A DNA stretch of 33,855 nt from an uncultured Victivallis sp. Lineage in GTDB: Bacteria; Verrucomicrobiota; Lentisphaeria; Victivallales; GWF2-50-93. A program made the translations under genes and the position numbers. The stretch covers positions 1 to 33,855 of the forward strand of contig CAZDNQ010000001.1 of assembly GCA_964506605.1 (NCBI GenBank), given 5' to 3'. The notes under the pieces are model-generated. The model was not told the origin of the DNA. It worked only from the letters and a program-made list of their open reading frames with translations, and searched no databases. Of this stretch, positions 4,067 to 26,684 are shown piece by piece (position 1 is the stretch's first letter; each line of letters starts with the position of its first letter).

Positions 4067-4121
4067 GGCATCGTCTCAAATGCAATATTTCTCCGGATGA
4101 GTCCTTGCCGCAGCTGAAACT

Positions 4122-5701: not shown

Positions 5702-5747
5702 TAAACCTGTTTTATGGCGGAAGGAATCCCATGTCCCCCGCAGGCCA

Positions 5748-6392: not shown

Positions 6393-6407
6393 TAAAGACG
6401 GATTTCC

Positions 6408-7136: not shown

Positions 7137-7698
7137 ATCTGTCCATTATGTCCGAAACATATTTCTTCGTTGACTTTATCCTGATATTCGGAATTACTTC
7201 CCCGTCCGGCTTGGCGGGTATCCACGAGCTCATCCCCTTGAACCCCGCATTGTATTCGGAAAGCGCCAGTTCTTCCCGGTGCTCGTATTTCTCCCATCTT
7301 TTCATTGCCCGCGACAGGTACCAGGCGCCAATTTCGATGTTGAGAGGCGGATAGAAAAGAACACCTTCACCTTCGAAACTGATTTTGTTCTCGTCGGCCC
7401 ACTCCTTGGCCGCGGTCGTAGGCCTGATCTGCATAAGCCCCACCTCGCCGCTGTATCCCCTGGCGTTCTGGTTGAACTTGCTCTCCTTCCAGATGACCGC
7501 CTTGAGAAGGCACGAATCGACACAATATTTCCTCGCGGCCTCCCTTATCAATCCATCATACACGTTTTTCCTGAAAAAATAGTCGTATGTCGCCTTGCCG
7601 ACGAGGATCCATGTTATCACGAGGAGACCCGACAGGATGATAAGGAGTATCCCGAACCTCCTGCCCTTATATCGGTTATGTATTATCTTCTGATACAT
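7099..7698 (-). CDS. Membrane-anchored lytic transglycosylase (SLT domain)
   Basis: 199 aa with an N-terminal TM anchor and the SLT catalytic motif (AVIWKESKFNQNARGYSGEVGLMQI, then AEYNAG-like SEYNAG). Confidence 0.85.
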   Translation of the reverse strand: MYQKIIHNRYKGRRFGILLIILSGLLVITWILVGKATYDYFFRKNVYDGLIREAARKYCVDSCLLKAVIWKESKFNQNARGYSGEVGLMQIRPTTAAKEWADENKISFEGEGVLFYPPLNIEIGAWYLSRAMKRWEKYEHREELALSEYNAGFKGMSSWIPAKPDGEVIPNIRIKSTKKYVSDIMDRYDDYASRREAGK

Positions 7699-11236: not shown

Positions 11237-13573
11237 CTACTTGGCGGAATGCCAGACGAGTACCTGTCCCGGATAAAGCGAAACAGCCTGATCTTTTTTA
11301 ACCTTCTCTCCCGTAAGATAATTTTCCAGATTGTCCGTCTTCAGATTGATCTTAACTTCCATGGCATCGGTCATCCCGGTATTGATTATAGCATACCAGG
11401 TTCCATCCTTTGGCGTTGGGATCTCTCGCACAACGACCTGAGGATTGGATGATGCTTCTGCGACCAGCTTGCTTGGCAATGCCGGGAGTGCGAGGAATGC
11501 CTGGTTGAAAGCCCTGACATATTCCGGAAAACCCCTCTGGAAGCTGTTGGCCGTCATATAGCCGATGAAGCGCGGATCTCCGTTCGCCAGCGCCCTGGCC
11601 TCGGCCAGCATGCTTAAGGAACCGGCCTCCTCGAAGTCGCACACGAAGTACCCAAGAGGCCTGCTCTTCCCTTCGCCGAAGCAGTTTTCATTCAGAGGAT
11701 AATGCCTGATCATGGCAAGTCCGTCCGGAGTGCGGAAGGATTCCATCGCCTTTGCATCCGATACGGAATATTGCCTGTTGAACGCCATGCTGAGCATGAC
11801 TCCCGGCGTCTTTGAATACAGATCTGGATCCAGCCTGGGAATCGAATGCTGCCACTCCCAGCCGCCCCACGTGCCCTGTTCGCCGGTCAGCCCTGCCCAT
11901 CCCAGACGCCTTGAAAGGACCTCTTCGGGGGAAAAAGTCTTTTCACCGGGAAAACGCGACGGATCATCTGTGACGATGCGGCCATCGGAGATGACCCGGC
12001 CCGGCTCGGTCGGATCTCCGGTGAAGATGAGCACGGCTTCAGGCCCTGCAACCTCGGGTTTGCGCAGGTAGTCCCGTATGGCGATGAAGAAATTGCGGCG
12101 CTGGCCCAGCCACCAGCTGATGTAGTCCTGGTAGAGCTTCTTATCCTTCTTCAGATCGTCGCGGGAGGGGACCTTCGGCAGTTTCGACTGTTCTGCAAAG
12201 AGCTTGCGGCATCTGTCGGAGAAGCTGATTGGCATACCGCTGTTCCTCGGACGGATCCAGGCGCCGAGGAAATGCGCCTTCTTCGATTCATCGGCGATGG
12301 TTATTTCGAGCATCTTGCGGAGATCCTCCACCGTATCAGGATCAGTCACATCCGCATTCGCCTTCTCGCTCCAGTTTATATGTGTATAGTCGTCACGTCC
12401 TTTCGGCCCCTTTCTGGCCTGTGCGAGCGTCTCGCAGCGCCTCTGGCTTCCAAGGGCCAGCTTGCCTCCGTTGCTGCCGCAGTATTCATACATCGGCAGA
12501 ATGTTCAAACTGTTTTTGCCTGCAAGTTCCACAAGCTGGTTCCATAACTGCGGAAAATTGGTCTGATACACCCAGTCATTGCTGCCATACTTGGAGGAAT
12601 CCCATCCCTGGTTGTGTCCGAACTCCAGGAGATCCTTGGAGAAAGTATCCATGCCCAGGAACTTCATAAGCCTCATCTTTGCGGCATACCAGTCCGTCAT
12701 GCGCGCACGTTCGAACGCAGGATTCTTTTCATCGGCGGCGACTCCGTCCGACATCTCCTCGCGCCAGAAAAGATGCCTCTGGGGAAGCCCGGCAGGCGGA
12801 TGTTTCAAGGAAAGTTCAAGGACCTTTGGATCCAGAATCGCGTATAGGCGTATGCTTTTCACCGCAATACCTTGTGATACCGGATCATTCGCATATTTGT
12901 AATGCGACAGCACCACATCAAATCCGTTTTCAGGTGCAAGGCTCCGCTTTTCGATCCCGATCCCGCCATAATGAGGATGAAGTTCGAACACGCATGTCCA
13001 TGTGCGGTACTGGCCTGAGAGCGGATAGGCCAGCGATTCCGGATTCCCGAAGACGTAAGGCATTTTCAGCGCATCGCCCACTGACGCACCTGTATGGAAT
13101 CCGCGCCTGGTCTCGTTTCCTGCGTTCCAGATTGCCATGCTGCGCGGCGCATCCTCCGGATACTCGATTTGCAGGACGTACTGGACTCCCGCCTTCAGCC
13201 CCTTCCCCTCGCCAATCCTCACAGCTACATACCTGTCAGGCGAATCCGGCTTGTTCGGCAGAGTCAGACAGCTCTTCCCGAAGATTTCCGTCCGTTCCAT
13301 GATCTTGCTGTCCGGATAGATCTTAAACTGGTGCCCGGGATCCGCAGCACCAAGATCAACCTCGTCCACAAGTGGAAGTTTTTGGATATCGAACGGAAGC
13401 TGGGGTAACTGGATCGTCCGAGCCGCCGGCTGAGGTGCAGGAACAGCCGCCGGCCTTGAAGGCTGGATGTCCTGCTGCTGTCCGACAACCTGATCTCCAG
13501 TTTCCTGCATCTTCTGGCATGAGACCATCGATATGACGGCAAGCCCGATCCACATACAATCTAATCTTCTCAT
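11237..13573 (-). CDS. Large secreted lipoprotein of unknown function (possible beta-sandwich plus TIM-barrel glycoside-hydrolase-like organisation)
   Basis: 778-aa ORF with a lipoprotein-type signal (..AVISMVSC), a Pro/Gln-rich linker and an AAGGAAA RBS 8 nt upstream. It sits 26 nt downstream of the pilin-like gene. I recognise no catalytic motif. Confidence 0.8.
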   Translation of the reverse strand: MRRLDCMWIGLAVISMVSCQKMQETGDQVVGQQQDIQPSRPAAVPAPQPAARTIQLPQLPFDIQKLPLVDEVDLGAADPGHQFKIYPDSKIMERTEIFGKSCLTLPNKPDSPDRYVAVRIGEGKGLKAGVQYVLQIEYPEDAPRSMAIWNAGNETRRGFHTGASVGDALKMPYVFGNPESLAYPLSGQYRTWTCVFELHPHYGGIGIEKRSLAPENGFDVVLSHYKYANDPVSQGIAVKSIRLYAILDPKVLELSLKHPPAGLPQRHLFWREEMSDGVAADEKNPAFERARMTDWYAAKMRLMKFLGMDTFSKDLLEFGHNQGWDSSKYGSNDWVYQTNFPQLWNQLVELAGKNSLNILPMYEYCGSNGGKLALGSQRRCETLAQARKGPKGRDDYTHINWSEKANADVTDPDTVEDLRKMLEITIADESKKAHFLGAWIRPRNSGMPISFSDRCRKLFAEQSKLPKVPSRDDLKKDKKLYQDYISWWLGQRRNFFIAIRDYLRKPEVAGPEAVLIFTGDPTEPGRVISDGRIVTDDPSRFPGEKTFSPEEVLSRRLGWAGLTGEQGTWGGWEWQHSIPRLDPDLYSKTPGVMLSMAFNRQYSVSDAKAMESFRTPDGLAMIRHYPLNENCFGEGKSRPLGYFVCDFEEAGSLSMLAEARALANGDPRFIGYMTANSFQRGFPEYVRAFNQAFLALPALPSKLVAEASSNPQVVVREIPTPKDGTWYAIINTGMTDAMEVKINLKTDNLENYLTGEKVKKDQAVSLYPGQVLVWHSAK

Positions 13574-13599: not shown

Positions 13600-14424
13600 C
13601 TAATATTCATCCAGACATGTCTCATATGGCTTCAGCCATGATATGGCATTCGTCTGCTTCCACCACCAGGTGCTTGTATATGGATCTATATCAAGGTTCT
13701 GCCAGACATTCGCCCTGTATTTTTTTGACATCAGAATATAACCATGACCGTCAAGAAAAACTGTCGGACGGGGGCCTGTCCATCCATGGAAGCTTGACGC
13801 GGGGCCGTTCCAGTCGTCCGACGAACCGAACTGGGTATCATCGGGATTGAAAGATCTTCCCCGGGAGCAGAAATACAGGGGATTCCTGTCTGGCTTCGTA
13901 TAATGTATCACTTTCAAGGAGATCGACTTGTCCCCGTCCCAGTACACCCTGGTACTTGTATATGAGTTGAGCTCCATGTTCCCGGTAGTATCGCCATGCT
14001 TGTATCGGGTTCCGCCCCATGAAGGCCAGCTGTTTGTGGTCTTGAACACGGACATGTTAGAGCTCGGGCAGAGGAATATCCCGCCGATCACGTTGTTCGG
14101 ATCGCCGGTATAGCCCACATATTGTCCGATCATCTGCTCCATCCTGATACCGCGGCCTCCATCCCAGACCCAGGATCCTGGCGGGCAAGGCCTGTAGTTA
14201 TTGTTGTCCTCGGCATAGTTGAGCTGCGCAAGGCCTATCTGCTTGAGATTTGAAAGGCAGGACATGCGTCTCGCCTGCTCCTTAGCGTTCTGGAGCGCAG
14301 GCAGGAGCAGCGCAGCCAGTATTGCGATGATCGCAATCACCACTAGCAATTCAATCAGCGTGAATGCATTTTTGACTCCAGATCCCATGTCATCCATCCT
14401 TTTGCCTTGCATATGATATTTCAT
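13600..14424 (-). CDS. Prepilin-type N-terminal cleavage/methylation domain protein, DUF1559 (H-X9-DG) type
   Basis: It has the [25 protein letters not shown] class III signal, then a [13 protein letters not shown] region typical of DUF1559 proteins. The true start may be an internal Met (for example 14388, MGSGVKNA|FTLIE), which gives a normal short leader. Confidence 0.85.
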
Positions 14425-14499: not shown

Positions 14500-14527
14500 T
14501 TGACAATTCATGCTATTAAAGTATAAG
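14500..14527 (+). promoter_or_regulatory. Candidate sigma70-type promoter for the AraC gene (TTGACA-N16-TATAAG)
   Basis: TTGACA lies at 14500-14505 and TATAAG at 14522-14527. The ATG at 14510 lies inside the spacer, which argues for the downstream start at 14585. Confidence 0.35.
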
Positions 14528-14584
14528 GACATCTCCTATTTCTCGGAGCTTTTCTCCTTCCTGAAGCCAGGAGGCGGAGAGGAT

Positions 14585-15418
14585 ATGCCGCTGCCGGCGA
14601 TGCTGCTTTCATGCGGGCACAGCAAGTCCTCGCAGTATCCAAACTACATGTGCGACGGACAGCATACGGCCTTCATGCCTTTTGCCGTCTGGCAGTACAC
14701 CCTGGCCGGCGAAGGCGTCCTGGATTTCGAGGACAGGAAGGGCATCCCCCTGTCATCTGGGACCCTGATGCTCCTCACCGCCCCGCACAGGTACCGCTAT
14801 TATCCCGCCAGCAGATCCGGAGAGTGGGATTTCCTGTTCGTCTGCATGAACGGTGATGCTGCCCTGGGCTTCTGCCGGGAGCTGGCATCCTTCTACGGAC
14901 CTGTGAACCGGGTCTCGGAAAGGTCTTCATCAGTTGCATCAGCCCGCAGGATACTTTCCGAAGCCCACAGGAGGAAGATCAATTCCAGATGGACCGCATC
15001 CATGCTGGCCTACGAACTGATGATGAATACAGCCAGGGATCTTTCAGCGTGCGCTCCGGGACGTTCATATCCGTCTTTCATCAAAAAGGCGATCGAGCAT
15101 TGCACCTCACATGCGGACCAGCCTCTTTCAGTAGGGGATCTGGCGAAGGCGTCCGGCTTCAGCCAGTACCACTTCGTCCGCCAGTTCAAAAGGAATGTAG
15201 GAATCCCACCGAGCGAATATATCCGTGAATTCCGGCTCTCCCGCGCCCGCCATCTCCTGCAGATGAGCACAGCAAGAGTCAAGGAGATATCTGACATCTG
15301 CGGATTTGCAAGCCCAGCCCATTTTTCCAGGACTTTCCGGACCAAGTTCGGGATATCGCCCGGCAGAATCCGCAAGACCGGGGGCCGACCCATGGCTCCT
15401 CCTGAAATCCATGAATGA
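14585..15418 (+). CDS. AraC-family transcriptional regulator (cupin-like sensor domain plus HTH_18)
   Basis: The C-terminus shows dual AraC HTH motifs (LSVGDLAKASGFSQYHFVRQFKR..GIPPSEYIREFRL..A..LL...V.EI...CGF.S.AHFSRTFR..FG.SPG). The ATG at 14585 has AGGAGG 10 nt upstream. The longest ORF starts at 14510. Confidence 0.9.
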   Translation: MPLPAMLLSCGHSKSSQYPNYMCDGQHTAFMPFAVWQYTLAGEGVLDFEDRKGIPLSSGTLMLLTAPHRYRYYPASRSGEWDFLFVCMNGDAALGFCRELASFYGPVNRVSERSSSVASARRILSEAHRRKINSRWTASMLAYELMMNTARDLSACAPGRSYPSFIKKAIEHCTSHADQPLSVGDLAKASGFSQYHFVRQFKRNVGIPPSEYIREFRLSRARHLLQMSTARVKEISDICGFASPAHFSRTFRTKFGISPGRIRKTGGRPMAPPEIHE

Positions 15419-15517: not shown

Positions 15518-17497
15518 ATGTCTTGGCCTGCCAGGATCACAGCTGTTCTTATCGGACTTGTATGCGCCTGCGTCATATGGGTGTTCCAGCCGATAAACAA
15601 TTTCCTTCTCAATAATTCCTATATCGCCGACAACTACATCCCCGAGCTTGGAATGGGGATGATCGCGATGCTTGTATTGTGCGCCAACCCGCTGCTCCGC
15701 CGTTTTGCGCCGAAGTTCGCCCTCAGCTTCCACCAGCTCGCGCTGGTGTTCGGCATAATACTGGTCTCATGTTCGGTGTGCCAGTTCATGAGGATATTCC
15801 CGCATGCGTTCGCCAGGGTGAACCGCGACGCGATACGGGAGAAGGTGCTGAACGACATCCACAGGAGCATGAACCTGCCTTCAATACTATATATAGACAA
15901 GATCACCGGCAAGGAGGCAGATGCAACCGGCCCCTTCCTGGAAAAGTCGGAGGCGGTGAAGGACATACCGTGGTCCGCATGGGTAGGCCCTGCATTTGTC
16001 TGGGGCATAATGGCGTTCTCGTGCTTCCTGATGATGTGCGGCATGGCGCTGATACTTTTCCCGCAGTGGCGTGACAATGAAAGGCTCTCCTTCCCCCTCC
16101 TTACAGTCCAGCAGTCCCTGATCGAGGATCCGGAAAAGGGAAGGCTTTTCCCGCCGATATTCACGAACAGGATATTCTGGTTCGGCTTCGGACTGGTCTT
16201 CATAATCCACGCAATGAACGGACTCAACCACCACACAGGGCAGCTGATCCCGACTTTCCCCCTCAAATGGAACCTCTGGAATGCTTTCTCGCAGGGGATG
16301 TGGGGCTATATGGACTGGTACGTGAAGTCAGGCTCCATACTTTTCATAATGGTGGGAATCACCTATTTCATGCCCAACAGGGTCGGATTCTCCCTCTGGT
16401 TCACCATGATCCTGCTCCAGATCTACAAGATGATCGGCTATGAATATTTCGCGCCTTTCTTCCCTGCGTCCGTCGATGAAAACAGGAACGGGGCGACATA
16501 CGGGGTGGCGCTGGTGATCCTATGGCTGGGGCGCAAGCATTGGATGACGGTGTTCAAGTCCATGTTCCGCAGGGCGGATACCGATGAGGACGTCAGGAAC
16601 AGGACTGCCGGATGGATATTCAGCTCGGGGCTGATCGTGCTCCTCTCCTGGGAGATCTGGGCCGGAATCCCGCTACTCTGGTCCCTTGTCTTCATAGGTG
16701 TATTCTTCGTGACAAGCCTGATCATGGCGAGGGTCGTCGCAGAGACAGGATTCCCGTTCATCGCGAACTACACCACGATCCTCACCCTGCTTTATGCGGT
16801 CCCGATAAAATTCCTTACCGCCAAGATCATCTTCTTCGGCGGAATATTCGATTTCATAGTCGGTCCGGGAACATCGCGCACCTCAGCAACCGTCTATTTC
16901 CTCCATGCGTTCGGACTGAACAAGGACAACAAGCCCCGCCAGACAGCGAGCCTCGGGAAATGGCTGCTCGGCGTGATATTGGCCGGATGCATCGTGATGG
17001 GCGCAGTCCATCTCTGGCTGGGCTACACCTACAGGGGCTCGGTCGATGGAGACAAATGTCCGATCTCATGGTGGGGCAGCATGAACGGGAACTGGGGAGT
17101 GCACGATCCGATGAAGGCATATGAAAGGGGCTCATGGAACAATACCATACCCTATAACCAGCCCCTGCACCTGGCCGCCGGATTCATCCTTGGGGCGGGG
17201 CTCCAGATCATGTGCCTCGTCTCGCCGAACTGGCCGCTGCACCCGATAGGCCTGCTCATGATGAACGGCTGGTTCCTGGGGATGTCATGGTTCAGCATAT
17301 TCCTCGGCTGGACGTTGAAAAACCTGATCACCGGATATGGCGGGGCGCGCGCATACCGGCTCGCAAAACCGCTGTTCCTTGGATTCATCCTCGGCGAGGT
17401 GTTCTCGGCGATTCTCTGGGCGCTTGTCCCGGTAATCATAATCGCCCTAGGAGGAAATCCCACGGAGACCGGACATATCGTGATCGTCCCGCAGTAG
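15518..17497 (+). CDS. 659-aa polytopic membrane protein, paralogue 1 (distant OPT-like / DUF6785-DUF6784-like, tentative)
   Basis: It has at least 12 hydrophobic helices, a QWRDNERLSFPL motif after an early helix pair and a C-terminal WPLHPIG..GYGGARAYR..KPLFLGFILGE. AGGAAG lies 10 nt upstream of the ATG. Confidence 0.85.
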   Translation: MSWPARITAVLIGLVCACVIWVFQPINNFLLNNSYIADNYIPELGMGMIAMLVLCANPLLRRFAPKFALSFHQLALVFGIILVSCSVCQFMRIFPHAFARVNRDAIREKVLNDIHRSMNLPSILYIDKITGKEADATGPFLEKSEAVKDIPWSAWVGPAFVWGIMAFSCFLMMCGMALILFPQWRDNERLSFPLLTVQQSLIEDPEKGRLFPPIFTNRIFWFGFGLVFIIHAMNGLNHHTGQLIPTFPLKWNLWNAFSQGMWGYMDWYVKSGSILFIMVGITYFMPNRVGFSLWFTMILLQIYKMIGYEYFAPFFPASVDENRNGATYGVALVILWLGRKHWMTVFKSMFRRADTDEDVRNRTAGWIFSSGLIVLLSWEIWAGIPLLWSLVFIGVFFVTSLIMARVVAETGFPFIANYTTILTLLYAVPIKFLTAKIIFFGGIFDFIVGPGTSRTSATVYFLHAFGLNKDNKPRQTASLGKWLLGVILAGCIVMGAVHLWLGYTYRGSVDGDKCPISWWGSMNGNWGVHDPMKAYERGSWNNTIPYNQPLHLAAGFILGAGLQIMCLVSPNWPLHPIGLLMMNGWFLGMSWFSIFLGWTLKNLITGYGGARAYRLAKPLFLGFILGEVFSAILWALVPVIIIALGGNPTETGHIVIVPQ

Positions 17498-17550
17498 ATA
17501 TTTATTGATTTGAAGATTGGATGACTTGGCGATTTGATGGATAACAAAAC

Positions 17551-20500
17551 ATGTATAGAAATGTGAAATTTATTATTGCGGTGTTCGTAGCGCTTGCGGC
17601 GGCGGCGGGATTCTGCTCTGATGACGGCATGCTCGCGCAGATCCGCAGCGATGCCGGTTTATTCTGTTCCAGCCCCGACCGTTCCACCGGCGGCGAAGGC
17701 GCAAGGAAGACCGGAGACTTCATAATTGAAAATGCATCCTCTCTTCCAAACGTAAAGGTGTTCATCCAGGAGTTTCCCGTCATCGTCCCTCACACGCTAA
17801 GATCGGAGATACGGATCGAAAAGGGCGAATTCGCGGGAACGCACAGGATCTATCCGGTATGGCCCGACAACGTGCGCATGAAGACAACTCCTCCCGGAGG
17901 TATAGAGGGAACGCCTGTCTACATCGGCGACGGCGACTACAACGAGATCCCAGGCACCAGCATCCGCAACCAGATCGCTGTTATGGAGATGTCGTCATAC
18001 GGGTTCGGCACCTGGTGGCGCGCCTTCGATTTCGGCGCCAGGGCAGTTATCCTTCTCGGTTCGAAGGACGACAGCCTGAGCCTGCCAAACGACATGCCTT
18101 TCTACAAGCCGCGCTACTATCTGCCGGAAGGCAAGCTCGCCGACGCCATGCGCCGGGGTGAAATAAAGAACGCAGCCATATTCTGCAGCCAGGAATGGAA
18201 GACGGCGACCGCAAGAAACATTATCGCAGTGGTCTCAGGCAAGGAGGCTTCAATCAAGGTTCCGCTGGTGATCTCGGCCTGCTATGACGCGACAAGCATC
18301 GTGCCGGATCTGTCGCCGGGCGCATACAACGCCGTGAATTCCTCCTTCCTGCTCAACTTTCTCAGGTTCCTTTCAGCGCATCCTCCGGAACGTCCGGCCG
18401 TCATCGCGTTCGTGGAGGGATTTGGGATAAACCAGCTAGGGATGCGCCAGCTTATGGCCATGCTCTCCCTGGATCCTGACGACATCACCCGCAAGAGCTT
18501 CGAAGAGAAGATGGAGAAGCAGCTCGCCGAATACGAGAAGGCTTGCGTGCTTGCCGGGGAACTTGGCGATGACGCTGTACCAGCACTCTCAAAGCTGAAC
18601 GACAGGAAGAAATATGAGATCCTCCAGCAGTATGCGAAGGATGAACTCAGCCCGGAACTGGTCAAGCTCAAAAATGAGACCGGAAAGCTGAGGCTGGCGA
18701 TCGCCAAGGCCGGCAGGATGGACTGCGAGAAGGAGAAAGGCGAACTCGCGGTGAAGTCCGCAAGGGTCGAACTGCTCAACAGGCTCCTCTGCCAGATCAT
18801 CCTTTCCGGAAAGATCGACCAGGACCTGCACGACGAGTCCGGAAAAGTCTGGTCCGGCATCCGCAGCCGCGTCTCCGCCCAGCTTGCATCCATGAAGTCG
18901 AGAAGCGGATATTTCAAAGATCTTGACCAGATGAGGTCCGGCATCCTCAAGACATGCGGCCTTGACATCTCAACCAGGCTTCCCTTCCCGTTCATCGTCG
19001 GCATAGATCTTTCCGACGCCGGCTGCAACGTCGGCCCAGCTCTGTGGTGCCAGCATCTTGGAGTCAACGAAATAGAGTCGTCCAGGGAATTCACACGCTG
19101 GCTGACCTCCTTCATAACAGATCCCTCCAAGGAACTCTCGTCCATACCGCAGGACCGGATCTCCGGTCTTGGCGTCGAACAGGGCGACATCAGATCGCTG
19201 ATAAGCTCCTTCATGAACGCGGAATCGGTGGACGTCAGTTCGATCGAACGGCTGATCCGAAGCAAACTGCCAGCTATTTCCAAGGAGAAGATCGACAATA
19301 TCGCCAACAAGATCAAGATGACGAGGCGGGAGGGGATTGTCGCGGAAGAGACGATTTCACAGGCCCTGAAGGACGAACTCCAGGGCATGACCCAGGAGGA
19401 GATGTCGCGGCTTACCAAGTCGGTCATGAACCGCCAGTCCGTCGAGGACTCCTCAGCTCCGGAATCGTTCCTGCCGGAAGGAGTCGGACTTCTTACATCG
19501 CAGGCGGACGGCTTTGGAATGCAAGGTGTGACCTGGGCGACGCTCGAGGGCATCCGCTCGCGTTTCGACACTCCGCAGGACACGTATGCCAGCCTCAACT
19601 GGAACAGGCTCGATCCGCAGCTCCGTCTCACGTCGATAGTCATGGCATGCCTGCTCAACAGCAAGATTTTCAATGTGAAGCTCGGAGAGGACACCGGATG
19701 GCCTCGCTGGAGGATGCCATACGGCACAATAGTAGGGGAATCGATCGCCGGCACGATCCCGAAGACGCCCGAGCCGGGGATCCTCGTAAACTACACGAAC
19801 TCAAACTGGTGGAGCCCCTGCAACAAGGTCCGTGGAATAAGGGGCATGGAGATGGTGAAGACCGGCGCCGACGGGACATTTATTTTCCCTCCCGTGCGCA
19901 TCCCCTATGACTGGAAGACCGAGTGGAAAAAGGTGAACGCCTACAAGCTTTCCGAGGACGGCAGGCCGGTCCGGGGAATCTCCGACATAAACACCACCGT
20001 CGTGGGAAACCTCTCCTCGTCGTTCAATCTCCGTTCACGTCCTCCTATGAAGGCCCTGAGGGCCGTCATGTTCGAAGGCGTGGAGATGGAAGGCCCTACT
20101 ATAAAGGATCCGAGATACCAGTGCCAGCTCAACGAATACAAGCTGATCGATGTCGGCCGCGGCGGAACTCCGAAACGGTACAACTTCAGGTTCGCCTTCG
20201 GAAGGATGACAGGCATGCTCGAGAAGGACACCTACTGGCAGCTGATCTTCAGGATTGGCTCCTCCAACAGGATGGCCCTTATGAACGTGCCCCAGGATGC
20301 GGCCGATGGGAAGATCTCGCTGCGCGACGCCATCAACTGCGGCTACAGGATCGGCGAGGAGCTGCCTGCCCTGCCGGAGGAGATATCCGCGTCCGACTTC
20401 TTCAGGATAGACGAATGGCGCCTGAGGAATCTGGAAAGCGCCGGGGTCATCTGCAGATCGATCAGGAACATCCATGCCGACACCAAGGAATGCTTCAAGC

Positions 20501-22680
20501 AGGCCGATGACGCCAGGAAGGCCGACAACGGGGCCGCACTCAAGCGCGCGTCCTGCGCCGCCCTGGCGAACGAGATCCGCGTATACCATGCCGTGCAGAA
20601 CCAGGCGGACGACGTCAGCCGCGGTGCAATATTCCTCCTGCTGCTCCTTGTGCCGTTCTCAATTGCCATGGAACGCCTCCTCTTCGCCTTCCCCGGCATT
20701 GGCAGGCAGATAATGGGAAGCTCCGGAATCTTCCTCCTGATGGGAGGAGTCCTCGCGAGCTTCCATCCCGGATTCCGCATTACATCGCAGCCGATAATAA
20801 TCCTGCTCGCGTTCTCAGTCCTCCTCCTGAGCCTGATAGTGATAGTGATGGTGTTCCAGAAGTTCAAGGGCGACATGGAGGAGCTCCAGCGCGGATCACT
20901 CGCCGAGGCCAGCGGAGCCCAGATCAACCGAGCAGGCGTGATCTTCAGCGCGGTCTGGCTCGGGATCGCCAACATGAGGAAACGGCTTCTGAGGACCGTC
21001 CTCACCGGTTTCACCATCATGCTGATCACCTTCTCACTCCTGTGCTTCACTTCCTCCTCCTCATACCAGGACAAGAGGGAGACGACCTTGGACAAGTGCG
21101 GCTCAAAGAATGCTCCGGGTATCCTCATCCAGCATCCTGCAATGCGCTCGCTGGACACCGAGACTGAAGAGAACATCAGCAATTTCCTCGGGTACAGCCA
21201 TGCGGTCGCAGGCCGTTACTGGATAGTCTCCGGCAATCCGAACTGGAGGCTGCATGTAAGGAATCCGATGTCCAACAAGCTCGCAGCCCTTAAGGGCGGG
21301 CTGGGACTGTCCCCTTCAGAATCAAAAGTCGGATCAATTCCAAAGTATCTACCGGACTGGGAAAAGTTCGCCGCCGGCGACGGCTGCTACCTCAGCAGGA
21401 GCACGGCTGAACAGCTTGAACTGAAGCCGGGGGAGAAGGTGACTGTCGGAGGGCGCGAGCTTGTCCTGGCAGGTGTGTTCGACGCAAAGGATTTCGAGCA
21501 GAACGCAAGGAAGATCGACGGAAACCCCATCGCACCTATCGATTTCACCGTGGAAAGGGACAATGGCTCCCTGAGCCAGAAGGCAATCGAAGGAGAGCTC
21601 GCGAGCGGAAACATGCTGGCGGTCTCGGACACGTTCAGATATGTGTCTCCCGACGAAATGATCATCGTCCCTGCGGTTCTCGCAAGAAAGATGGGAGCGT
21701 CCCTCAGGAATATCGCCGTGCAATCCAATTCAGACGACTCCGCCAGCACCGCCGAACATCTCATGAAGCTCCTCGTATATCCCGTCTACTACAGCGCTGG
21801 GAACGAAGTCAGGGCGATCGTCTCGACACCCCTGCTCCCGAAGGCGCCGCGCCAGCTCCTCATACCGATAATCATAGCGGCCCTGATAATCTTCAACACC
21901 ATGCTCAATTCGATTGCGGAAAGAAAGAAGGAGATCCATATATACAGCAGCCTCGGACTCGCGCCAGGCCACATCGGAGTGCTGTTCCTGGCAGAGGCTC
22001 TGACGTACGGCATGATGGGATCGGTGTTCGGCTATGTCGCCGGACAGGGCATCGCAACCGCCCTCACCAGCTTCAATCTCATGGGAGGGATCACCCTGAA
22101 CTACTCAGGCTCGAACGTGATATTGACGATGGGGCTTGTACTCATGGTCGTCACACTCTCCTCCATCGTCCCCGCAATAATGGCTGCGAGAGTCGCAAGC
22201 CCGAGCAGGGAGCTCGACTGGCGCGTCCCGAAACCAAAGGACGGCGTCATCTCCGATCTCCTCCCGTTCACCGTCAACACGCACGCATCCCACGGCCTTG
22301 TCTCGTTCCTCTTCGAATATCTCGACGCCCACCGCGACGGCGCGATCGGCAATTTCACCTCCGACAAGCTCAACGTCAGGGAAATCGACGGCGGACATAT
22401 ACAGGTTGAAGGAATAGTCTGGCTTTCACCGTACGACCTCGGCGTCAGGCAGGAATTCGAGCTGGTGATATCTCCGACCGGAGTCGAGGACATCTGCAGC
22501 CTGAGGATCCTCCTGCGGCGCGAGGCGGGCGACGAGAGATCGTGGTGGAGGCTCAACCGCGTATTCATCGGAGACCTGCGCAAACAGCTGCTCGGATGGA
22601 GGAACATCTCTTCTGAAAGAATGCTCAAGTATGTCACGGAAGGAAGGATGAGGACGAAGAGGAAGACCGCAGATGCGTGA
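17551..22680 (+). CDS. 1709-aa fusion protein: signal peptide, PA/M28-like extracytoplasmic module with coiled-coil insertion, unknown beta-rich region, 3 TM, FtsX/MacB-type permease (4 TM plus about 270-aa periplasmic domain), and about 160-aa cytoplasmic tail
   Basis: A single uninterrupted ORF. It has a signal peptide (MYRNVKFIIAVFVALAAAAGFC) and an M28-like stretch (ARNIIAVVSGK..VISACYDA..PGAYNAVNS..IAFVEGFG). The MacB-type TM1 is IANMRKRLLRTVLTGFTIMLITFSLL. The FtsX domain is IIAALIIFNTMLNSIAERKKEIHIYSSLGLAPGHIGVLFLAEAL..IVPAIMAARVASPS. Confidence 0.9.
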   Translation: MYRNVKFIIAVFVALAAAAGFCSDDGMLAQIRSDAGLFCSSPDRSTGGEGARKTGDFIIENASSLPNVKVFIQEFPVIVPHTLRSEIRIEKGEFAGTHRIYPVWPDNVRMKTTPPGGIEGTPVYIGDGDYNEIPGTSIRNQIAVMEMSSYGFGTWWRAFDFGARAVILLGSKDDSLSLPNDMPFYKPRYYLPEGKLADAMRRGEIKNAAIFCSQEWKTATARNIIAVVSGKEASIKVPLVISACYDATSIVPDLSPGAYNAVNSSFLLNFLRFLSAHPPERPAVIAFVEGFGINQLGMRQLMAMLSLDPDDITRKSFEEKMEKQLAEYEKACVLAGELGDDAVPALSKLNDRKKYEILQQYAKDELSPELVKLKNETGKLRLAIAKAGRMDCEKEKGELAVKSARVELLNRLLCQIILSGKIDQDLHDESGKVWSGIRSRVSAQLASMKSRSGYFKDLDQMRSGILKTCGLDISTRLPFPFIVGIDLSDAGCNVGPALWCQHLGVNEIESSREFTRWLTSFITDPSKELSSIPQDRISGLGVEQGDIRSLISSFMNAESVDVSSIERLIRSKLPAISKEKIDNIANKIKMTRREGIVAEETISQALKDELQGMTQEEMSRLTKSVMNRQSVEDSSAPESFLPEGVGLLTSQADGFGMQGVTWATLEGIRSRFDTPQDTYASLNWNRLDPQLRLTSIVMACLLNSKIFNVKLGEDTGWPRWRMPYGTIVGESIAGTIPKTPEPGILVNYTNSNWWSPCNKVRGIRGMEMVKTGADGTFIFPPVRIPYDWKTEWKKVNAYKLSEDGRPVRGISDINTTVVGNLSSSFNLRSRPPMKALRAVMFEGVEMEGPTIKDPRYQCQLNEYKLIDVGRGGTPKRYNFRFAFGRMTGMLEKDTYWQLIFRIGSSNRMALMNVPQDAADGKISLRDAINCGYRIGEELPALPEEISASDFFRIDEWRLRNLESAGVICRSIRNIHADTKECFKQADDARKADNGAALKRASCAALANEIRVYHAVQNQADDVSRGAIFLLLLLVPFSIAMERLLFAFPGIGRQIMGSSGIFLLMGGVLASFHPGFRITSQPIIILLAFSVLLLSLIVIVMVFQKFKGDMEELQRGSLAEASGAQINRAGVIFSAVWLGIANMRKRLLRTVLTGFTIMLITFSLLCFTSSSSYQDKRETTLDKCGSKNAPGILIQHPAMRSLDTETEENISNFLGYSHAVAGRYWIVSGNPNWRLHVRNPMSNKLAALKGGLGLSPSESKVGSIPKYLPDWEKFAAGDGCYLSRSTAEQLELKPGEKVTVGGRELVLAGVFDAKDFEQNARKIDGNPIAPIDFTVERDNGSLSQKAIEGELASGNMLAVSDTFRYVSPDEMIIVPAVLARKMGASLRNIAVQSNSDDSASTAEHLMKLLVYPVYYSAGNEVRAIVSTPLLPKAPRQLLIPIIIAALIIFNTMLNSIAERKKEIHIYSSLGLAPGHIGVLFLAEALTYGMMGSVFGYVAGQGIATALTSFNLMGGITLNYSGSNVILTMGLVLMVVTLSSIVPAIMAARVASPSRELDWRVPKPKDGVISDLLPFTVNTHASHGLVSFLFEYLDAHRDGAIGNFTSDKLNVREIDGGHIQVEGIVWLSPYDLGVRQEFELVISPTGVEDICSLRILLRREAGDERSWWRLNRVFIGDLRKQLLGWRNISSERMLKYVTEGRMRTKRKTADA

Positions 22681-22712: not shown

Positions 22713-24707
22713 ATGAGGGAAGACAAGGAATATAAAGAATTCAGGGATCTGATGAAGCGTCCGGAGAAGTTCGAGGACGGCTTCAACAGCGGAACCGTGG
22801 TCATGGGGCTGTTCGTCGGCCTCGTGATGGCACCTGCCTCCGTGTATATGAATCTCGTCGCCGGACTCCATATGGGCGGAGCCGCGCAGTGGGTGACGGT
22901 CCTGCTCTACGTCGAGATCGCCAGAAGGGCGTTCAAGAAGCTGAGCCGCCCGGAGATATTCGTCCTCTTCTACATGTGCGGCGCCGCGATAGCCGCAGGC
23001 GGACAGGACTGGCTGTGGCGCCAGTTCCTCGTGCAGAGCGAGGAGATGAGGAAGATGGGGCTCATCGAATATATTCCGTCGTGGTTCGCGCCTACCGATC
23101 CGGAGATCCTCAAGAAGCACAGCTTCCTGATGTGGGAATGGCTCTGGCCGATCGGCATCACCTGCCTCATGATGCTCCTCCAGCGTGTCGACCACTTCGG
23201 ACTCGGATATGTGCTGTTCAGGCTGACGGCGGACGTCGAGGAGCTTCCTTTCCCCATGGCTCCTGTAGGGGCGGCAGGAATGACGGCTCTTGCGGATGCG
23301 TCGGCCGACAGGGAGACCTGGCGGTACCGTGTATTCTCGATGGGCGCGATCCTCGGAATTTTCTTCGGTGCAATCTATATCGCGCTGCCAAGCATAACAG
23401 GAGCTTTCCTGTCTGAGCCGATCCGTCCTATCCCGATGCCGTTTGTCGATCTGACAAGCTACACTGAAAGCGTCCTCCCTGCATCGCCGATTATGTTCTC
23501 GTTCGACCTTGGATACGTAATATTCGGCATGGTGATGCCGTTCTGGGCGATCATAGGCTCCCTTTTCGGAGTCATATTCACCATGTTCTTCAATCCAATA
23601 CTCCAGCTGACGGGATTCCTCGGAGGATGGGAACCGGGCCTCAACGCGATGGATACCGTGCGGTCGAACGTCTTCGACTTCTACTTCAGCTTCAATCTAG
23701 GCCTTCTCTTCGCCGTCGCCGCAATAGGAATATTGCACATGTACAGGACATTCCAGAAGAAAAAGAAGGAGGCCGACGAACTGGGCAAGGCCGGCATCGA
23801 CTGGGGCAGGCTCTTCAAAAGTCCGGAAGGCAGGGGCGACTTCTCGATATGGATCGGCGTGGCGATATATGTAGCCTCAACCCTGACCTATGTTCTCGCC
23901 ACATACTATCTTGTCAACTACGGATCCGGCCCCCTCGCAGGAAACATGTTCCCGTTCTGGCTGCTGCTTGTATATGGTTTCATCTGGACGCCGTTCATCA
24001 GCTATATCTCGGCGCGAATGGAAGGTCTTGTCGGACAGCAGATGCAGATACCGTTCGTCAGGGAGTCGACGTTCATCCTTTCCGGATACAAGGGCGCGGC
24101 GATCTGGTTCGCGCCGATACCGCTCCACAATTATTCCTACCAGGTGCTGCAGTTCCGACAGATGGAGCTGACCGGCACGAAGTTCACATCATTGATAAAG
24201 GCTGAAATAATCACCTATCCCCTGATGATCGTCGGAACCATGATATTCGCGCAGTTCATATGGTCGATCGGCCCCGTCCCGAGCGAGATGTTCCCGTATG
24301 CAAACGAGTTCTGGGAACTCAATGCATATAACCAGGGTCTTGTATATACCGCAACCCTGCCGGGAGAGGTGCTGAATCCGTTCCGTGAATCGTTCCGGCC
24401 AGATCTGATCTGCGGAGGATTCGGAATGGCGATGATCCTCTACGGGATTCTTGCGCACTTCAACCTACCGGTGTTCCTGGTATACGGAATGATCCGCGGC
24501 CTCGACCAGTCTCTGCCGCACACCATCATACCGACGATCATCGGCGCGATACTTGGCCGTTACTTCTGCAGCAGGTGGTTCGGCGAAAAATGGCCACAGT
24601 ACAGGGTCGTCTTCGCCGCCGGATTCGGAGCTGGAATGGGGCTGATAACAATGTTCGCACTGGGAATAGTGTTCATGAGCAAGAGCGCAAACCTGTTCCC
24701 GATATGA
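22713..24707 (+). CDS. 664-aa polytopic membrane protein, paralogue 2 (distant OPT-like, tentative)
   Basis: It has at least 12 hydrophobic helices. VEELPFPMAPVGAAGMTAL resembles the OPT-family LPFPSGTATA motif and the ERLSFPL motif of the 15518 gene. The C-terminal Gly-rich helices are similar to paralogue 1. Confidence 0.85.
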   Translation: MREDKEYKEFRDLMKRPEKFEDGFNSGTVVMGLFVGLVMAPASVYMNLVAGLHMGGAAQWVTVLLYVEIARRAFKKLSRPEIFVLFYMCGAAIAAGGQDWLWRQFLVQSEEMRKMGLIEYIPSWFAPTDPEILKKHSFLMWEWLWPIGITCLMMLLQRVDHFGLGYVLFRLTADVEELPFPMAPVGAAGMTALADASADRETWRYRVFSMGAILGIFFGAIYIALPSITGAFLSEPIRPIPMPFVDLTSYTESVLPASPIMFSFDLGYVIFGMVMPFWAIIGSLFGVIFTMFFNPILQLTGFLGGWEPGLNAMDTVRSNVFDFYFSFNLGLLFAVAAIGILHMYRTFQKKKKEADELGKAGIDWGRLFKSPEGRGDFSIWIGVAIYVASTLTYVLATYYLVNYGSGPLAGNMFPFWLLLVYGFIWTPFISYISARMEGLVGQQMQIPFVRESTFILSGYKGAAIWFAPIPLHNYSYQVLQFRQMELTGTKFTSLIKAEIITYPLMIVGTMIFAQFIWSIGPVPSEMFPYANEFWELNAYNQGLVYTATLPGEVLNPFRESFRPDLICGGFGMAMILYGILAHFNLPVFLVYGMIRGLDQSLPHTIIPTIIGAILGRYFCSRWFGEKWPQYRVVFAAGFGAGMGLITMFALGIVFMSKSANLFPI

Positions 24708-24719: not shown

Positions 24720-25655
24720 ATGGCAGAGGACAGAAAACAGAATGAAGAAAAGATGGGCAAGATGAGCCAGAAGAACGAAACTGACTTCATAAGCTGGCAG
24801 GGATTCAGGATTCCGCTTATGAGGGAATGGCGTCCGCTGAAGATAGAAGGCGGATTCCGCAAGGGCTCGGTCGCGATTGGCGACGTGTCAGGCCCACTCT
24901 TCGAGATCAGATGGGTGAGACCGGATGCAGCCGACTTCGACGGACGCGCCTGGATCAGCAGGAACAAGGAGCGGTCCAGCGACAACATCGCTTCCGCTCC
25001 GCCACGTCCGCAGGGGTTCTCATCCGTCGGATGGATAAAGGAGTTCGAGGACAAAGGTTCATCGAAGAAGACAGTTTGGTGGGGATATTCCGTTGAAGGA
25101 ATGGTGTTGATTGAGATAGTCGTAGGCGAAATCATTGACAAGCCATCATATGAATGGATAATTTCGGAGGCGATACCATCCCTCAAGGTGTCGAAGCCCG
25201 ACGAGGAATGGATCTGGAGGATCTTCAGCGCGCAGTTCTCGGTTCCAGCAGGCTTTGTCCTGGAAAGGCACAGGCTGAACAACGGCGACATGTCCCTTTG
25301 CTTCACACGCGGGAAGAAGGAGAGGCTTGTCATGCGCCAGGTATATCCTGCGGACCTCGCAGTCGGCAGGAGATCCCTTGAAAAATGGTTCGACGAGTCC
25401 CCATTCAGGGAGAGCAGGAAGTTCAGGGAGGCGAAGGACGGCGTACGTTGCGAAAGGAAGAAGGATTTCACGGTGGACGGATGGAAGCTTGTCCCTTTTC
25501 CGTTCGGATTCGTAAGGCCGCGCAGGTGCCGCAGGCTTGCTGCGGTTGACGATGCCAGTGACAGGATCTTCATGACGGAATATGAGTATGGGAAAAGGGA
25601 TTCGGGCGAAGCTGCGGAGTTCGCAATGAAGAAGATGCGCGGAGGCGTCCTGTGA
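24720..25655 (+). CDS. 311-aa soluble (cytoplasmic) protein of unknown function, Trp/Arg-rich
   Basis: The ORF starts 12 nt after the preceding stop, with GAGGAAG upstream, and ends in a GTGA overlap with the next gene. It has no TM segment, no signal peptide and no recognisable motif. Confidence 0.75.
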   Translation: MAEDRKQNEEKMGKMSQKNETDFISWQGFRIPLMREWRPLKIEGGFRKGSVAIGDVSGPLFEIRWVRPDAADFDGRAWISRNKERSSDNIASAPPRPQGFSSVGWIKEFEDKGSSKKTVWWGYSVEGMVLIEIVVGEIIDKPSYEWIISEAIPSLKVSKPDEEWIWRIFSAQFSVPAGFVLERHRLNNGDMSLCFTRGKKERLVMRQVYPADLAVGRRSLEKWFDESPFRESRKFREAKDGVRCERKKDFTVDGWKLVPFPFGFVRPRRCRRLAAVDDASDRIFMTEYEYGKRDSGEAAEFAMKKMRGGVL

Positions 25656-26023
25656 ACCTGTTCGGAAATGTCCCGAAGAATGATGCGATGGGGCGCGCCG
25701 CGGCGCTTAACGCGTGTCCGGTGCGCACCAATGCGGTCAAGACGGAGGAGAAGAAGGACAAGCTCTACGTGACGGTCCTCTTCATGAGGCCGAAATGGCA
25801 GCAGTGGCTTGGGGCCGAGGAGAAATGCCAGCGGACGTTTGGACTGGACAAATACGGAGTGGAAGTATACCGTGCCTGCGACGGTGGGACTTCCGTTAAG
25901 AAGATAGTTGATGTTTTTGCGGAAAACCATAAGATGAGCATCGCCGAAGCGGAGATATCTGTATGCCAGTTCATAAAGACTCTGCTGATAAAGGGGCTTA
26001 TTGTAATGCAGGTGGAGAAATAA
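25652..26023 (+). CDS. PqqD-family / RiPP-recognition-element (RRE)-like small protein
   Basis: 123 aa with a GTG start overlapping the upstream stop (GTGA). FGLDKYGVEVYRACDGGTSVKKIVDVFAENHKMSIAEAEISVCQFIKTLLIKGLI matches the PqqD pattern (L...g..vw..cDG..tv.eIv..l...y.....a..dv..Fl..L...gli). Confidence 0.7.
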   Translation: MNLFGNVPKNDAMGRAAALNACPVRTNAVKTEEKKDKLYVTVLFMRPKWQQWLGAEEKCQRTFGLDKYGVEVYRACDGGTSVKKIVDVFAENHKMSIAEAEISVCQFIKTLLIKGLIVMQVEK

Positions 26024-26033
26024 GGTCAATACG

Positions 26034-26684
26034 ATGAAGACAGAACAGGAAATTATGGAGATCGAGTCCCTGCCGCTGGGGAAGATAATCAGCATCACCT
26101 GCAAGGGGATCAGGATACGCATATGGCGGTCCCTCATAGTGGTGTCCGGCATCGTCCTCGCGATCGCGTTCCTGTCGTACATCCTCTGCTCGGACGGCTT
26201 TGCGCAGAACGTCTCAAAGGCGGCGGGAAGCGCGCTGGAGCAGGCAAACCCGGAAAAGATCCAGGAACTGAAGGACCAGCGCGTCCAGACATACTGGATG
26301 GTCGGGCTCGCGATACTGATAAGCTTTGTCGGAATAATAAACGCCATGCTGATGAGCGTCACCGAAAGGTTCCGCGAGATCGGAACGATGAAGTGCCTCG
26401 GCGCGATCGACTCGTTCGTCCTGAAGATGTTCCTGATAGAGAGCGTGATCGAAGGAGTGATAGGCGCAATCTTCGGCGTGTCCGCCGGAATCGCGATCGC
26501 CTATGCCGAGGGCATGTTCACATATGGTTCGGGAGTATGGACGATGCTGCCGGCCGGATGGTTCATGTGCGTCGTCGGCTTCTCATTCGTCACAGGTGTG
26601 ATAATAACCGTAGTAGCGGCCCTCTATCCGGCCCGCGAGGCCGCGAAGATGACCCCGGTCGTGGCGCTGAGGGCGGAGCTGTGA
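26034..26684 (+). CDS. Minimal FtsX-family ABC permease (4 TM, extracytoplasmic loop of only about 45 aa)
   Basis: 216 aa. TM1 is IRIWRSLIVVSGIVLAIAFLSYIL. The FtsX core is INAMLMSVTERFREIGTMKCLGAIDSFVLKMFLIES...ALYPAREAAKMTPVVALRAE. Confidence 0.88.
   Translation: MKTEQEIMEIESLPLGKIISITCKGIRIRIWRSLIVVSGIVLAIAFLSYILCSDGFAQNVSKAAGSALEQANPEKIQELKDQRVQTYWMVGLAILISFVGIINAMLMSVTERFREIGTMKCLGAIDSFVLKMFLIESVIEGVIGAIFGVSAGIAIAYAEGMFTYGSGVWTMLPAGWFMCVVGFSFVTGVIITVVAALYPAREAAKMTPVVALRAEL

Follow-up and report, generated by a model that had tools for sequence, protein, structure and literature searches.

The window analyzed here, a 33,855-nt stretch of DNA from an uncultured Victivallis sp. (contig CAZDNQ010000001.1), contains an open reading frame (ORF) for a 1709-aa protein that we call BIG, in which a very large N-terminal region precedes an FtsX-domain permease. 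This raises the question of whether BIG is one genuine protein and, if so, what kind of machine it belongs to. The original prediction, made by reading the sequence, was that of a possible cis-fused analogue of FtsEX-EnvC/PcsB, with a coiled coil and a dead peptidase-like module covalently attached to an FtsX permease. We find that BIG is a genuine, conserved single-chain fusion of an ectodomain with an M28/PA fold, lacking the canonical catalytic set, to an FtsX-domain permease (ATP-binding cassette [ABC] type VII).

BIG as a single-chain fusion of an M28/PA-fold head and a type VII permease

The ORF is real and uninterrupted, as read originally, and a protein identical to BIG, encoded on a 40.7-kb contig of Lentisphaeria type, is on record at NCBI and JGI. 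The nearest named relatives are proteins from Lentisphaeria/Victivallis metagenome-assembled genomes (MAGs; 77-78% identity). A word-indexed search returned 45 full-length database proteins (about 1500-2100 aa) with the BIG architecture, and an exhaustive phmmer search with the ectodomain as the query yielded 1174 cluster representatives at E ≤ 1e-3 (820 at E ≤ 1e-10), mostly 1450-1950 aa long. The complete architecture was present in 84 of the 144 closest representatives; the others end at scattered positions, which is consistent with contig fragments. A split two-gene form was looked for among the short representatives and was not found. Furthermore, a scan of one genome per GTDB species detected relatives of BIG in at least 582 species of ten or more phyla, among them Lentisphaerae/Verrucomicrobiota, Planctomycetota (Phycisphaerae, Tepidisphaerales, Brocadiia), Sumerlaeota, Armatimonadota, Latescibacterota, Omnitrophota, Gemmatimonadota, Nitrospirota, and Desantisbacteria. 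Since the architecture recurs on this scale and its junction lengths are constant in most homologues, we exclude an assembly or annotation artefact, i.e., a chimeric contig or a frameshift joining two genes, and the fusion assumed in the original prediction stands.

Searched alone against Pfam and NCBIfam, the window protein matched only FtsX above the cutoff. MacB_PCD was sub-threshold, and so was Peptidase_M28 (aa 223-289; 18.8 bits vs. a cutoff of 21.3). Family profiles were therefore required to establish the M28/PA fold of the head. With a profile built from 26 full-length homologues, the search of PDB sequences gave the aminopeptidases 2ek8 (E 7e-19; profile positions 26-313) and YwaD/BSAP (2e-15) and, in addition, MacB (5gko; 9e-10), YtrF (2e-8), nicastrin (2e-5), LolC, nicalin, and transferrin receptor (TfR). 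Profile matches to nicalin reached 8e-10, and those to TfR ranged from 2e-6 to 3e-3. Among the same 26 homologues, the Pfam cutoff was exceeded by M28 in 6, by PA in 5 (best E 2.4e-4), by MacB_PCD in 7, and by FtsX in all 26. An AlphaFold2 (AF2) model of aa 1-1030, based on a 44-sequence alignment (predicted local distance difference test [pLDDT], 88.3; predicted template modeling score [pTM], 0.84), matched, in Foldseek searches of PDB, the structures 2ek8 (2e-15), BSAP, PaAP, TfR, and glutamate carboxypeptidase II (GCPII), each with a probability of 1.0, and the top matches were all PA-containing M28 proteins. Thus, both the family profile and the AF2 model with Foldseek place the BIG head in the M28 alpha/beta fold, and Pfam, the alignment to 2ek8/YwaD, and Foldseek agree on a PA domain inserted into the N-terminal half of this fold. 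The PA-like and M28-like segments proposed earlier are thereby substantiated. The N terminus is signal-peptide-like.

The features of BIG and of its neighborhood are listed in Table 1; occupancies, segment lengths, and residue counts, here and below, refer to an alignment of 73 homologues. The charged segment that had been described as helical with heptad character is indeed helical in the AF2 model (helices 312-338, 352-386, 393-419, and 424-452, with pLDDT above 90) and 35% charged, but its heptad signal is weak (z = 1.65 vs. shuffles). Moreover, this insertion 1 is clade specific. It is present in the Planctomycetes-Verrucomicrobia-Chlamydiae (PVC) phyla and a few others, and about 13 residues stand in its place in Latescibacterota, Omnitrophota, Gemmatimonadota, Nitrospirota, and most Armatimonadota homologues. 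The following stretch of about 550 aa, previously considered devoid of motifs, resolves into the rest of the M28 fold, a helical insertion 2 restricted to the Lentisphaeria clade of the window protein, a beta-rich domain without matches in Pfam, NCBIfam, or PDB sequence searches, and a three-helix stalk, the length of which is constant (81-82 aa) in most of the homologues.

Table 1. Coordinates of BIG, its parts, and the genes around it
Feature	aa of BIG	Position in window (nt)	Strand	Basis
BIG, whole gene (1709-aa fusion protein)	1-1709	17551-22680	+	ATG start, no internal stops
Signal-peptide-like hydrophobic N terminus (MYRNVKFIIAVFVALAAAAGFC)	1-22	17551-17616	+	Hydropathy peak 1-19; AF2 helix 2-23, low pLDDT
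N-terminal M28 fold with inserted PA domain (about aa 100-200)	30-306	17638-18468	+	Family profile, AF2, Foldseek; conserved
Charged helical insertion 1 inside M28 fold	307-470	18469-18960	+	AF2; occupancy 0.54-0.71
Central M28 strands with GIDLSD and near-invariant D486	471-520	18961-19110	+	AF2, occupancy; conserved
Helical insertion 2	521-640	19111-19470	+	pLDDT 56-81 (low confidence); occupancy about 0.1
C-terminal part of M28 fold with RFDTPQDT	641-705	19471-19665	+	HMM alignments; conserved
Beta-rich periplasmic domain	715-930	19693-20340	+	AF2 strands 724-910; occupancy about 1.0
Three-helix stalk entering membrane	940-1020	20368-20610	+	AF2 helices 942-963, 969-991, 994-1029; conserved
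Three extra TM helices	1021-1105	20611-20865	+	Hydropathy, AF2, alignment
Cytoplasmic linker and amphipathic pre-TM1 helix	1106-1145	20866-20985	+	AF2; 8 K/R over aa 1103-1148
MacB/LolCE-type four-TM module	1146-1549	20986-22197	+	Pfam, profile, AF2, Foldseek
Cytoplasmic alpha/beta tail domain	1550-1709	22198-22680	+	AF2 strands/helices 567-709 of model 2
AraC-family regulator, directly upstream		14510-15418	+	Pfam
DUF6785 + DUF6784 polytopic membrane protein (659 aa)		15518-17497	+	Pfam E 5e-77 and 2e-22
g664, divergent OPT/YSL-like polytopic permease		22713-24707	+	Pfam OPT and homologue annotation
g311, conserved soluble protein (311 aa), Trp-rich		24720-25655	+	Syntenic
PqqD-like (RRE-type) small protein		25652-26023	+	Pfam PqqD E 9.5e-8; syntenic
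Small FtsX-domain subunit (216 aa)		26034-26684	+	Pfam FtsX E 3.4e-16; syntenic
Two LolD/MacB/FtsE-type ABC ATPase genes		26761-27552, 27533-28267	+	20-nt overlap
778-aa ORF		11237-13573	-	No Pfam match
DUF1559/N-terminal-methylation (prepilin-like) gene		13600-14424	-
502-aa ORF		28251-29759	+	One N-terminal TM; no Pfam/NCBIfam match

Downstream of the stalk, AF2, Pfam, the family profile, and Foldseek agree with the three transmembrane helices (TMs), the MacB-type module, and the 160-aa tail of the original prediction. The block of three extra TMs measures 85 aa in nearly all of the homologues (range, 84-86). Residues P1035, E1041, H1072, P1073, and F1088 are invariant in it, and R1042 is nearly so. 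E1041, R1042, and H1072-P1073 are polar or charged and lie within or beside the membrane. The extra TMs thus have the look of a site that functions within the membrane and might be an interface or a proton relay.

The permease module consists of TM1, a 264-aa periplasmic domain (aa 1170-1433), TM2, a coupling-helix region (AERKKEIHIYSSLG), TM3, and TM4. Pfam FtsX covers aa 1439-1547 (E 5.6e-15; 55.9 bits vs. a cutoff of 25.5). In a second AF2 model (model 2, aa 1000-1709; pLDDT, 84.2; pTM, 0.65), TM1 spans aa 1146-1168 and is followed by a mixed alpha/beta domain (aa 1175-1425) and by TM2-4, with a short coupling helix after TM2; the division of the periplasmic domain into Porter and Sabre parts is read from the order of the secondary structure elements alone. 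The coupling region AERKKEIHIYSSLG aligns with SVTERTQEIGVRMAVG of MacB ("SVTERTQEIG"), and E1457, R1458, and E1461 are invariant. BIG thus has the features of a type VII ABC permease: the TM2-TM4 bundle, the four-TM arrangement with a periplasmic domain, and a coupling helix together with genes for MacB/LolD-type ATPases.

The type of permease was predicted less accurately. Foldseek matches of model 2 were best for LolE/LolC (5e-11 to 1e-8), HrtB (4e-8), and MacB (2e-7), and weak for BceAB (3.8e-3) and FtsX (about 1e-2). The NCBIfam equivalog models of FtsX gave 19.8 bits vs. a cutoff of 255 (FtsX_Gneg), 18.4 vs. 225 (FtsX_Gpos), and 13 vs. 250 (FtsX_actino), and the periplasmic domain, at 264 aa, is not the small domain of FtsX, which is defined by a Porter part and an X-lobe with no significant Sabre (PMC5985334, PMC7668044). 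All Lol/MacB scores in NCBIfam were also far below their cutoffs, including LolE (27.9 vs. 439 bits) and lolCE (15.7 vs. 362); on the ATPase side, LolD reached 231 vs. 307.75 bits. Judged from the models, the permease module resembles LolC/E, HrtB, and MacB far more than FtsX. By the curated NCBIfam models, BIG is neither FtsX in the strict sense nor LolC/E or MacB.

The counts of K and R residues in the loops (TMc-TM1 linker, 8; TM2-TM3 loop, 3; TM3-TM4 loop, 0) and the hydrophobic N terminus fit the topology proposed before, with both large domains predicted outside and the tail inside. The tail is strongly conserved (PYDLGVRQ motif, W1665, R1677, and W1683). It had no match in Pfam, NCBIfam, or PDB sequence searches, and its Foldseek matches were weak and Bet v1/Mog1-like (E 0.03-0.08), so that they are not relied on. 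We know of no comparable domain after TM4 in a characterized type VII permease.

The former M28 active site

The positions of the M28 metal ligands were mapped by hidden Markov model (HMM) alignments to 2ek8 and YwaD and by family alignments. The N-terminal M28 segment bears C244, D246, G257-A258-Y259, and F291-G292 at former ligand positions. The His ligand of the HxD motif is replaced by C244, and homologues have Y, P, F, R, and other residues here (His in 2 of 73). The structural Asp is kept as D246, and Asp is found at this position in 72 of the 73 homologues. The bridging Asp corresponds to Y259 (D or E in 51 homologues), the catalytic Glu corresponds to F291 (His in 32 homologues), and the ligand Glu corresponds to G292 (F, G, S, and others; Glu in 3). 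The second Asp/Glu ligand appears to be retained as D486 (Asp in 65 homologues), an equivalence assigned from the strand position and from the motif compared with "NFNLDMVG" of YwaD. The late His is replaced by D673 in RFDTPQDT, the motif already pointed out in the original prediction, and Asp was present in 18 of 19 sampled motif strings; the T-P after D673, and D677, are nearly invariant. The losses noted before, including that of His at C244, were thus real, but their register has to be corrected: the bridging Asp is Y259 and not N260, and the Glu-Glu pair is F291-G292 and not E289-G290.

Per-column counts and sampled motifs showed the canonical M28 set (H/D/E/D/H ligands plus the catalytic Glu) in none of the 73 homologues. 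The window protein is among the most degenerate of the family, with a possible ligand at two of the five positions at most. Judged by these residues, its head is not an active M28 peptidase. The aspartates of the pocket are under clear selection, which argues for a retained binding function rather than for decay.

Homologues without insertion 1 (L070, L082, L060, L078, and others) differ at this site. They have an invariant His at the position of the catalytic Glu, in the motif S-[SGA]-H-F. This clade, which includes Latescibacterota, Omnitrophota, Armatimonadota, and related homologues, keeps a bridging D or E in most members. It may have a noncanonical metal site that was lost by the clade of the window protein.

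The conserved gene module around BIG

Gene neighborhoods were compared using called genes with precomputed Pfam matches and phmmer searches of the six-frame ORFs of 80 loci. In most of these loci, BIG is followed by g664, by g311 and the gene of a PqqD-like protein (both optional), by a small FtsX gene, and by one or two ABC ATPase genes. The DUF6785+DUF6784 protein is often encoded just upstream of the module or nearby. Starting from g664 homologues, the same module was recovered, with BIG immediately upstream.

The most constant and best-conserved neighbor is g664 (about 70% identity across Lentisphaeria, Phycisphaera, and Kiritimatiellia). In nearly all genomes examined, the gene after BIG encodes an OPT/YSL-like permease. 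The match of g664 to Pfam OPT (PF03169) is sub-threshold (E 0.018; 14.1 bits vs. a cutoff of 25.8) and spans profile positions 133-619 of 623. Many close homologues carry PF03169, and where a source gives them a name, it is "peptide transporter" or "OPT/YSL family transporter." No match to g664 was found among PDB sequences. BLASTP revealed no similarity between the DUF6785/6784 protein and g664, while hhalign of the two family profiles gave a 61% probability (E 8e-5; 136 columns), and the motif ERL(S/P)FP(L/M) is common to both profiles. As a hint and not a finding, the two proteins may be distant paralogues; if so, DUF6785 would be a branch of the OPT superfamily.

For g311, no Pfam, NCBIfam, or PDB match was obtained, even with a 21-sequence profile. 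The start of the PqqD-like gene overlaps its end by 4 nt, and in a Kiritimatiellia MAG the two are fused into one 452-aa gene (L085, positions 16275-17633). In the window, a PqqD/RRE-type peptide-chaperone fold stands in a transporter operon, and enzymes for ribosomally synthesized and posttranslationally modified peptides (RiPPs) are absent nearby.

The small FtsX protein has four TMs according to its sequence layout and the coupling motif SVTERFREIG. Since only about 33 residues lie between its TM1 and TM2, it has no periplasmic or Porter domain; a review (PMC5985334) ascribes such a domain to every type VII member of which its authors knew. In both of the paralogous ATPases, Walker A/B, the signature, and the H-loop are intact. 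Their best models are LolD, DevA, MacB, DarD, and FtsE, all under the equivalog cutoffs. Two different ATPase genes are found in Lentisphaeria, Verrucomicrobia, and Kiritimatiellia loci and in two Phycisphaerae loci (L014 and L031), and most other loci have one. This copy pattern hints that in certain lineages the ATPase pair has changed from a homodimer to a heterodimer.

Outside the core module, nothing is widely conserved, and the best flanking cluster was present in 10 of about 80 loci. An AraC-type gene is also located directly upstream in L001, and in L021 and L027 AraC-like genes lie on the opposite strand, elsewhere in the locus. Recurrent flanking genes encode a Zn-dependent dehydrogenase (Zn-ADH; 10 loci, several phyla), GH2 (6 loci), and FGE-sulfatase (5 loci), and in PVC loci also GH65, GH31, GH127, aldo-keto reductase (AKR), GFO/IDH, and M42 and M24 peptidases. 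A promoter and terminator scan did not help to define the operon: terminator-like sites were at chance level, and promoter-like sites exceeded it by a modest margin (18 vs. 9.9 ± 3.3).

In the rest of the window, the DUF1559 gene is typical of PVC bacteria; it adjoins the 778-aa ORF, and both are divergent from the AraC gene. The 502-aa ORF overlaps the end of the second ATPase gene and is probably outside the core module, since L001 and L002 have different genes after the ATPases. Positions 124-7698 encode YdjM-like, ceramidase-like (weak), CobS, acyltransferase, GNAT, DUF3047, and SLT transglycosylase proteins, and none of these genes recurs beside the module in other loci.

Possible functions and relation to known systems

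We tentatively explain these data by a model of an asymmetric ABC mechanotransducer of type VII (MacB/Lol-type) that has BIG as its large subunit; the non-catalytic head of BIG would bind a ligand and work with OPT-like permeases. We give this model slightly less than an even chance. As a general statement on the architecture it is probable, and its uptake-specific part is possible but doubtful. The asymmetric complex would be made up of BIG, the small FtsX subunit as its counterpart, and two copies of the ATPase, and it can be likened to LolCE or to BceB with its single extracellular domain (PMC5985334). In support of a paired asymmetry, two different ATPases stand beside two different permease subunits in the Lentisphaeria, Verrucomicrobia, and Kiritimatiellia loci and in L014 and L031. 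MacB transmits motion by ATP-driven zipping of TM and stalk helices (PMC5985334). If ATP binding had this effect in BIG, its periplasmic domain would move, and the motion could be relayed via the three extra TMs and the helical stalk to the periplasmic arm of about 1000 residues. Mechanotransmission acting on a built-in periplasmic module is reasonable in view of the fusion, the predicted topology, and the LolD/MacB/FtsE-type ATPases encoded in the same operon. The former active-site pocket, with its strongly constrained D246, D486, D673, and D677, would be a binding site and not a catalytic one. The machine may act physically with g664, and often with the DUF6785/6784 protein, in the inducible capture of a periplasmic nutrient-derived ligand (peptide or glycan derived) and its hand-over to the OPT-like permeases. 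Such an uptake role is favored by the AraC regulator, by the catabolic flanking genes, and by the importer character of OPT proteins, the known members of this family being importers.

Several observations weigh against this model. To our knowledge, no type VII ABC system serves import. Neither the small FtsX nor an ATPase gene was found within 10 kb in Latescibacterota loci; in Gemmatimonadota-type loci, the small FtsX gene was not found within 10 kb, and the sole ABC ATPase is a weak match about 8 kb downstream. The catabolic flanks are present in a minority of loci only. Furthermore, g311 and the PqqD-like protein have neither signal peptides nor TM segments and therefore look cytoplasmic, so that an exported peptide fits at least as well as an imported nutrient. 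Finally, with His in place of the catalytic Glu and the bridging acid kept, the wider family could hold a noncanonical metal site or even catalysis. A more specific form of the uptake model, in which a MacB-type, ATP-driven mechanotransducer (BIG, small FtsX, and ATPases) with a non-catalytic aminopeptidase-fold head captures a periplasmic ligand and forces or gates its passage through the OPT-fold permeases (g664 and DUF6785/6784), is quite unlikely. If true, the machine would be the first type VII ABC system coupled to import and would give the OPT family its first primary-active partner; it would be widespread in Planctomycetota, Verrucomicrobiota/Lentisphaerae, Armatimonadota, Latescibacterota, and other phyla.

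The main rival explanation, which we consider unlikely, reverses the direction. The OPT-like protein, the cytoplasmic PqqD-like protein with g311, or both would deliver a peptide or lipid-linked product to the periplasmic face, and the complex of BIG, small FtsX, and ATPase would then clear the inner membrane or periplasm of it by expulsion or extraction, in the manner of MacB, LolCDE, HrtBA, and DevCBA, with the dead-peptidase head as a receiving or hand-off domain. That LolE/LolC, HrtB, and MacB are the top structural matches of the permease is in line with this, and so are the peptide-binding chaperone module represented by the PqqD-like RRE fold, the fusion of g311 to it in Kiritimatiellia, and the ATPase scores, which for two peptide-exporter models, DarD and lactococcin-972, come close to those for LolD. 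Moreover, the direction of action is outward, from the membrane or the periplasm, in every type VII ABC system characterized (PMC5985334). However, a precursor peptide, a maturase, a MacA-like adaptor, and an outer membrane factor are not conserved in the module, and many loci retain BIG and g664 but lack g311 and the PqqD-like gene. The importer character of the OPT family, and the AraC regulator and catabolic genes that flank the module in several loci, also speak against export.

The analogy from which we started, in which ATP-driven motion would pass via a coiled coil to a degenerate peptidase domain and activate or release a cell wall hydrolase, is improbable. In FtsEX-EnvC, a coiled coil carries the mechanotransmission to a LytM domain that is autoinhibited (PMC7668044), and in BIG a single polypeptide unites a type VII permease with a non-catalytic peptidase-like domain and a helical hairpin-like insertion. 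But many phyla lack this insertion, its heptad signal is weak, and it sits within the M28 fold instead of between the head and the permease. The periplasmic domain is MacB/Lol sized, the FtsX models remained at 13-20 bits (cutoffs, 225-255), and M28 is unrelated to LytM (M23) and CHAP. No LytM, CHAP, or amidase partner was found in BIG, its neighbors, or the conserved module, the conserved partners of which are transporter-like. What remains of the analogy is a cis-fused, non-catalytic, peptidase-fold ectodomain on a type VII permease with related ATPases, while the coiled coil, the FtsX identity, and the link to a hydrolase were not upheld. Still less probable is an ectodomain that works as an enzyme with a noncanonical metal site of acidic residues and His, which would make BIG a membrane-anchored, ATP-regulated hydrolase. 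The near invariance of D246, D486, D677, and (from sampled motifs) D673, the acid kept at the bridging position, and the His of the insertion-less clade would suit such an enzyme. Against it stand C244, Y259, F291, and G292 in the window protein, the absence of the canonical set from all homologues in the alignment, and the nearest non-enzymatic relatives by profile, which are nicalin, nicastrin, and TfR.

Full-text literature searches found no paper on the BIG family, on DUF6785, on FtsX with OPT and PqqD, or on MacB/FtsX with Planctomycetes and M28. Within the type VII ABC superfamily, the architecture of BIG and its gene module are new and widespread: a PA-M28 head of about 1000 residues without the catalytic set, three extra TMs, and a cytoplasmic tail, in a module of 6-8 genes carried by many poorly studied phyla. 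Type VII systems (MacB, LolCDE, FtsEX, BceAB, and HrtBA) turn cytoplasmic ATP hydrolysis into work beyond the membrane, and every newly understood member has revealed a new envelope process. The constant pairing of BIG with an OPT-like protein is a testable link between two transporter superfamilies that were previously unconnected.

Among known proteins, the best profile and structure matches of the head are the PA-M28 aminopeptidases (Aneurinibacillus 2ek8, Bacillus subtilis YwaD/BSAP, and Pseudomonas aeruginosa PaAP), which share the PA domain inserted in M28. They are soluble secreted enzymes with the full H/D/E/D/H set and the Glu, whereas BIG has C244, Y259, F291, G292, and D673. An M28-type fold without zinc ligands also serves the eukaryotic nicastrin, nicalin, and TfR as the large lobe that a membrane protein or complex has outside the cytoplasm, and BIG would be a bacterial case of this use. 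Unlike these proteins, BIG is fused to an ABC permease and not to a single TM anchor, and its helical insertions, beta-rich domain, and helical stalk have no counterpart in them.

With FtsEX-EnvC/PcsB, BIG shares an ABC engine of the same superfamily, ATPases of a related type, and a periplasmic module that combines long helices with a non-catalytic or autoinhibited peptidase-family domain. In BIG, however, this module is covalently fused and has the M28 and PA folds instead of LytM or CHAP, its helical element is a dispensable insertion, its periplasmic permease domain is not FtsX-like, and there is neither a hydrolase partner nor a division-gene context. BceB resembles the proposed complex in that just one of its two FtsX-type halves bears an extracytoplasmic domain, and in that extra TMs link its parts (PMC5985334). 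It differs in being one chain of 10 TMs, in its small sensor-like domain, and in its histidine kinase partner, and its Foldseek match is weak; with BIG, two separate proteins, BIG and the 216-aa subunit, would produce the asymmetry in trans. The closest likeness of the permease is to MacB, LolC/LolE, and HrtB, with which BIG has in common the four-TM module, the large periplasmic domain between TM1 and TM2, the coupling helix between TM2 and TM3, the amphipathic pre-TM1 helix, and a separate LolD-type ATPase. As in LolCE (PMC5985334), the permease of BIG is likely heterodimeric. In contrast to these systems, BIG adds about 1000 periplasmic residues and three TMs at the N terminus and a 160-aa cytoplasmic domain at the C terminus, its partner subunit has no periplasmic domain, and its module is constantly linked to an OPT-like protein instead of to MacA/TolC-type partners.

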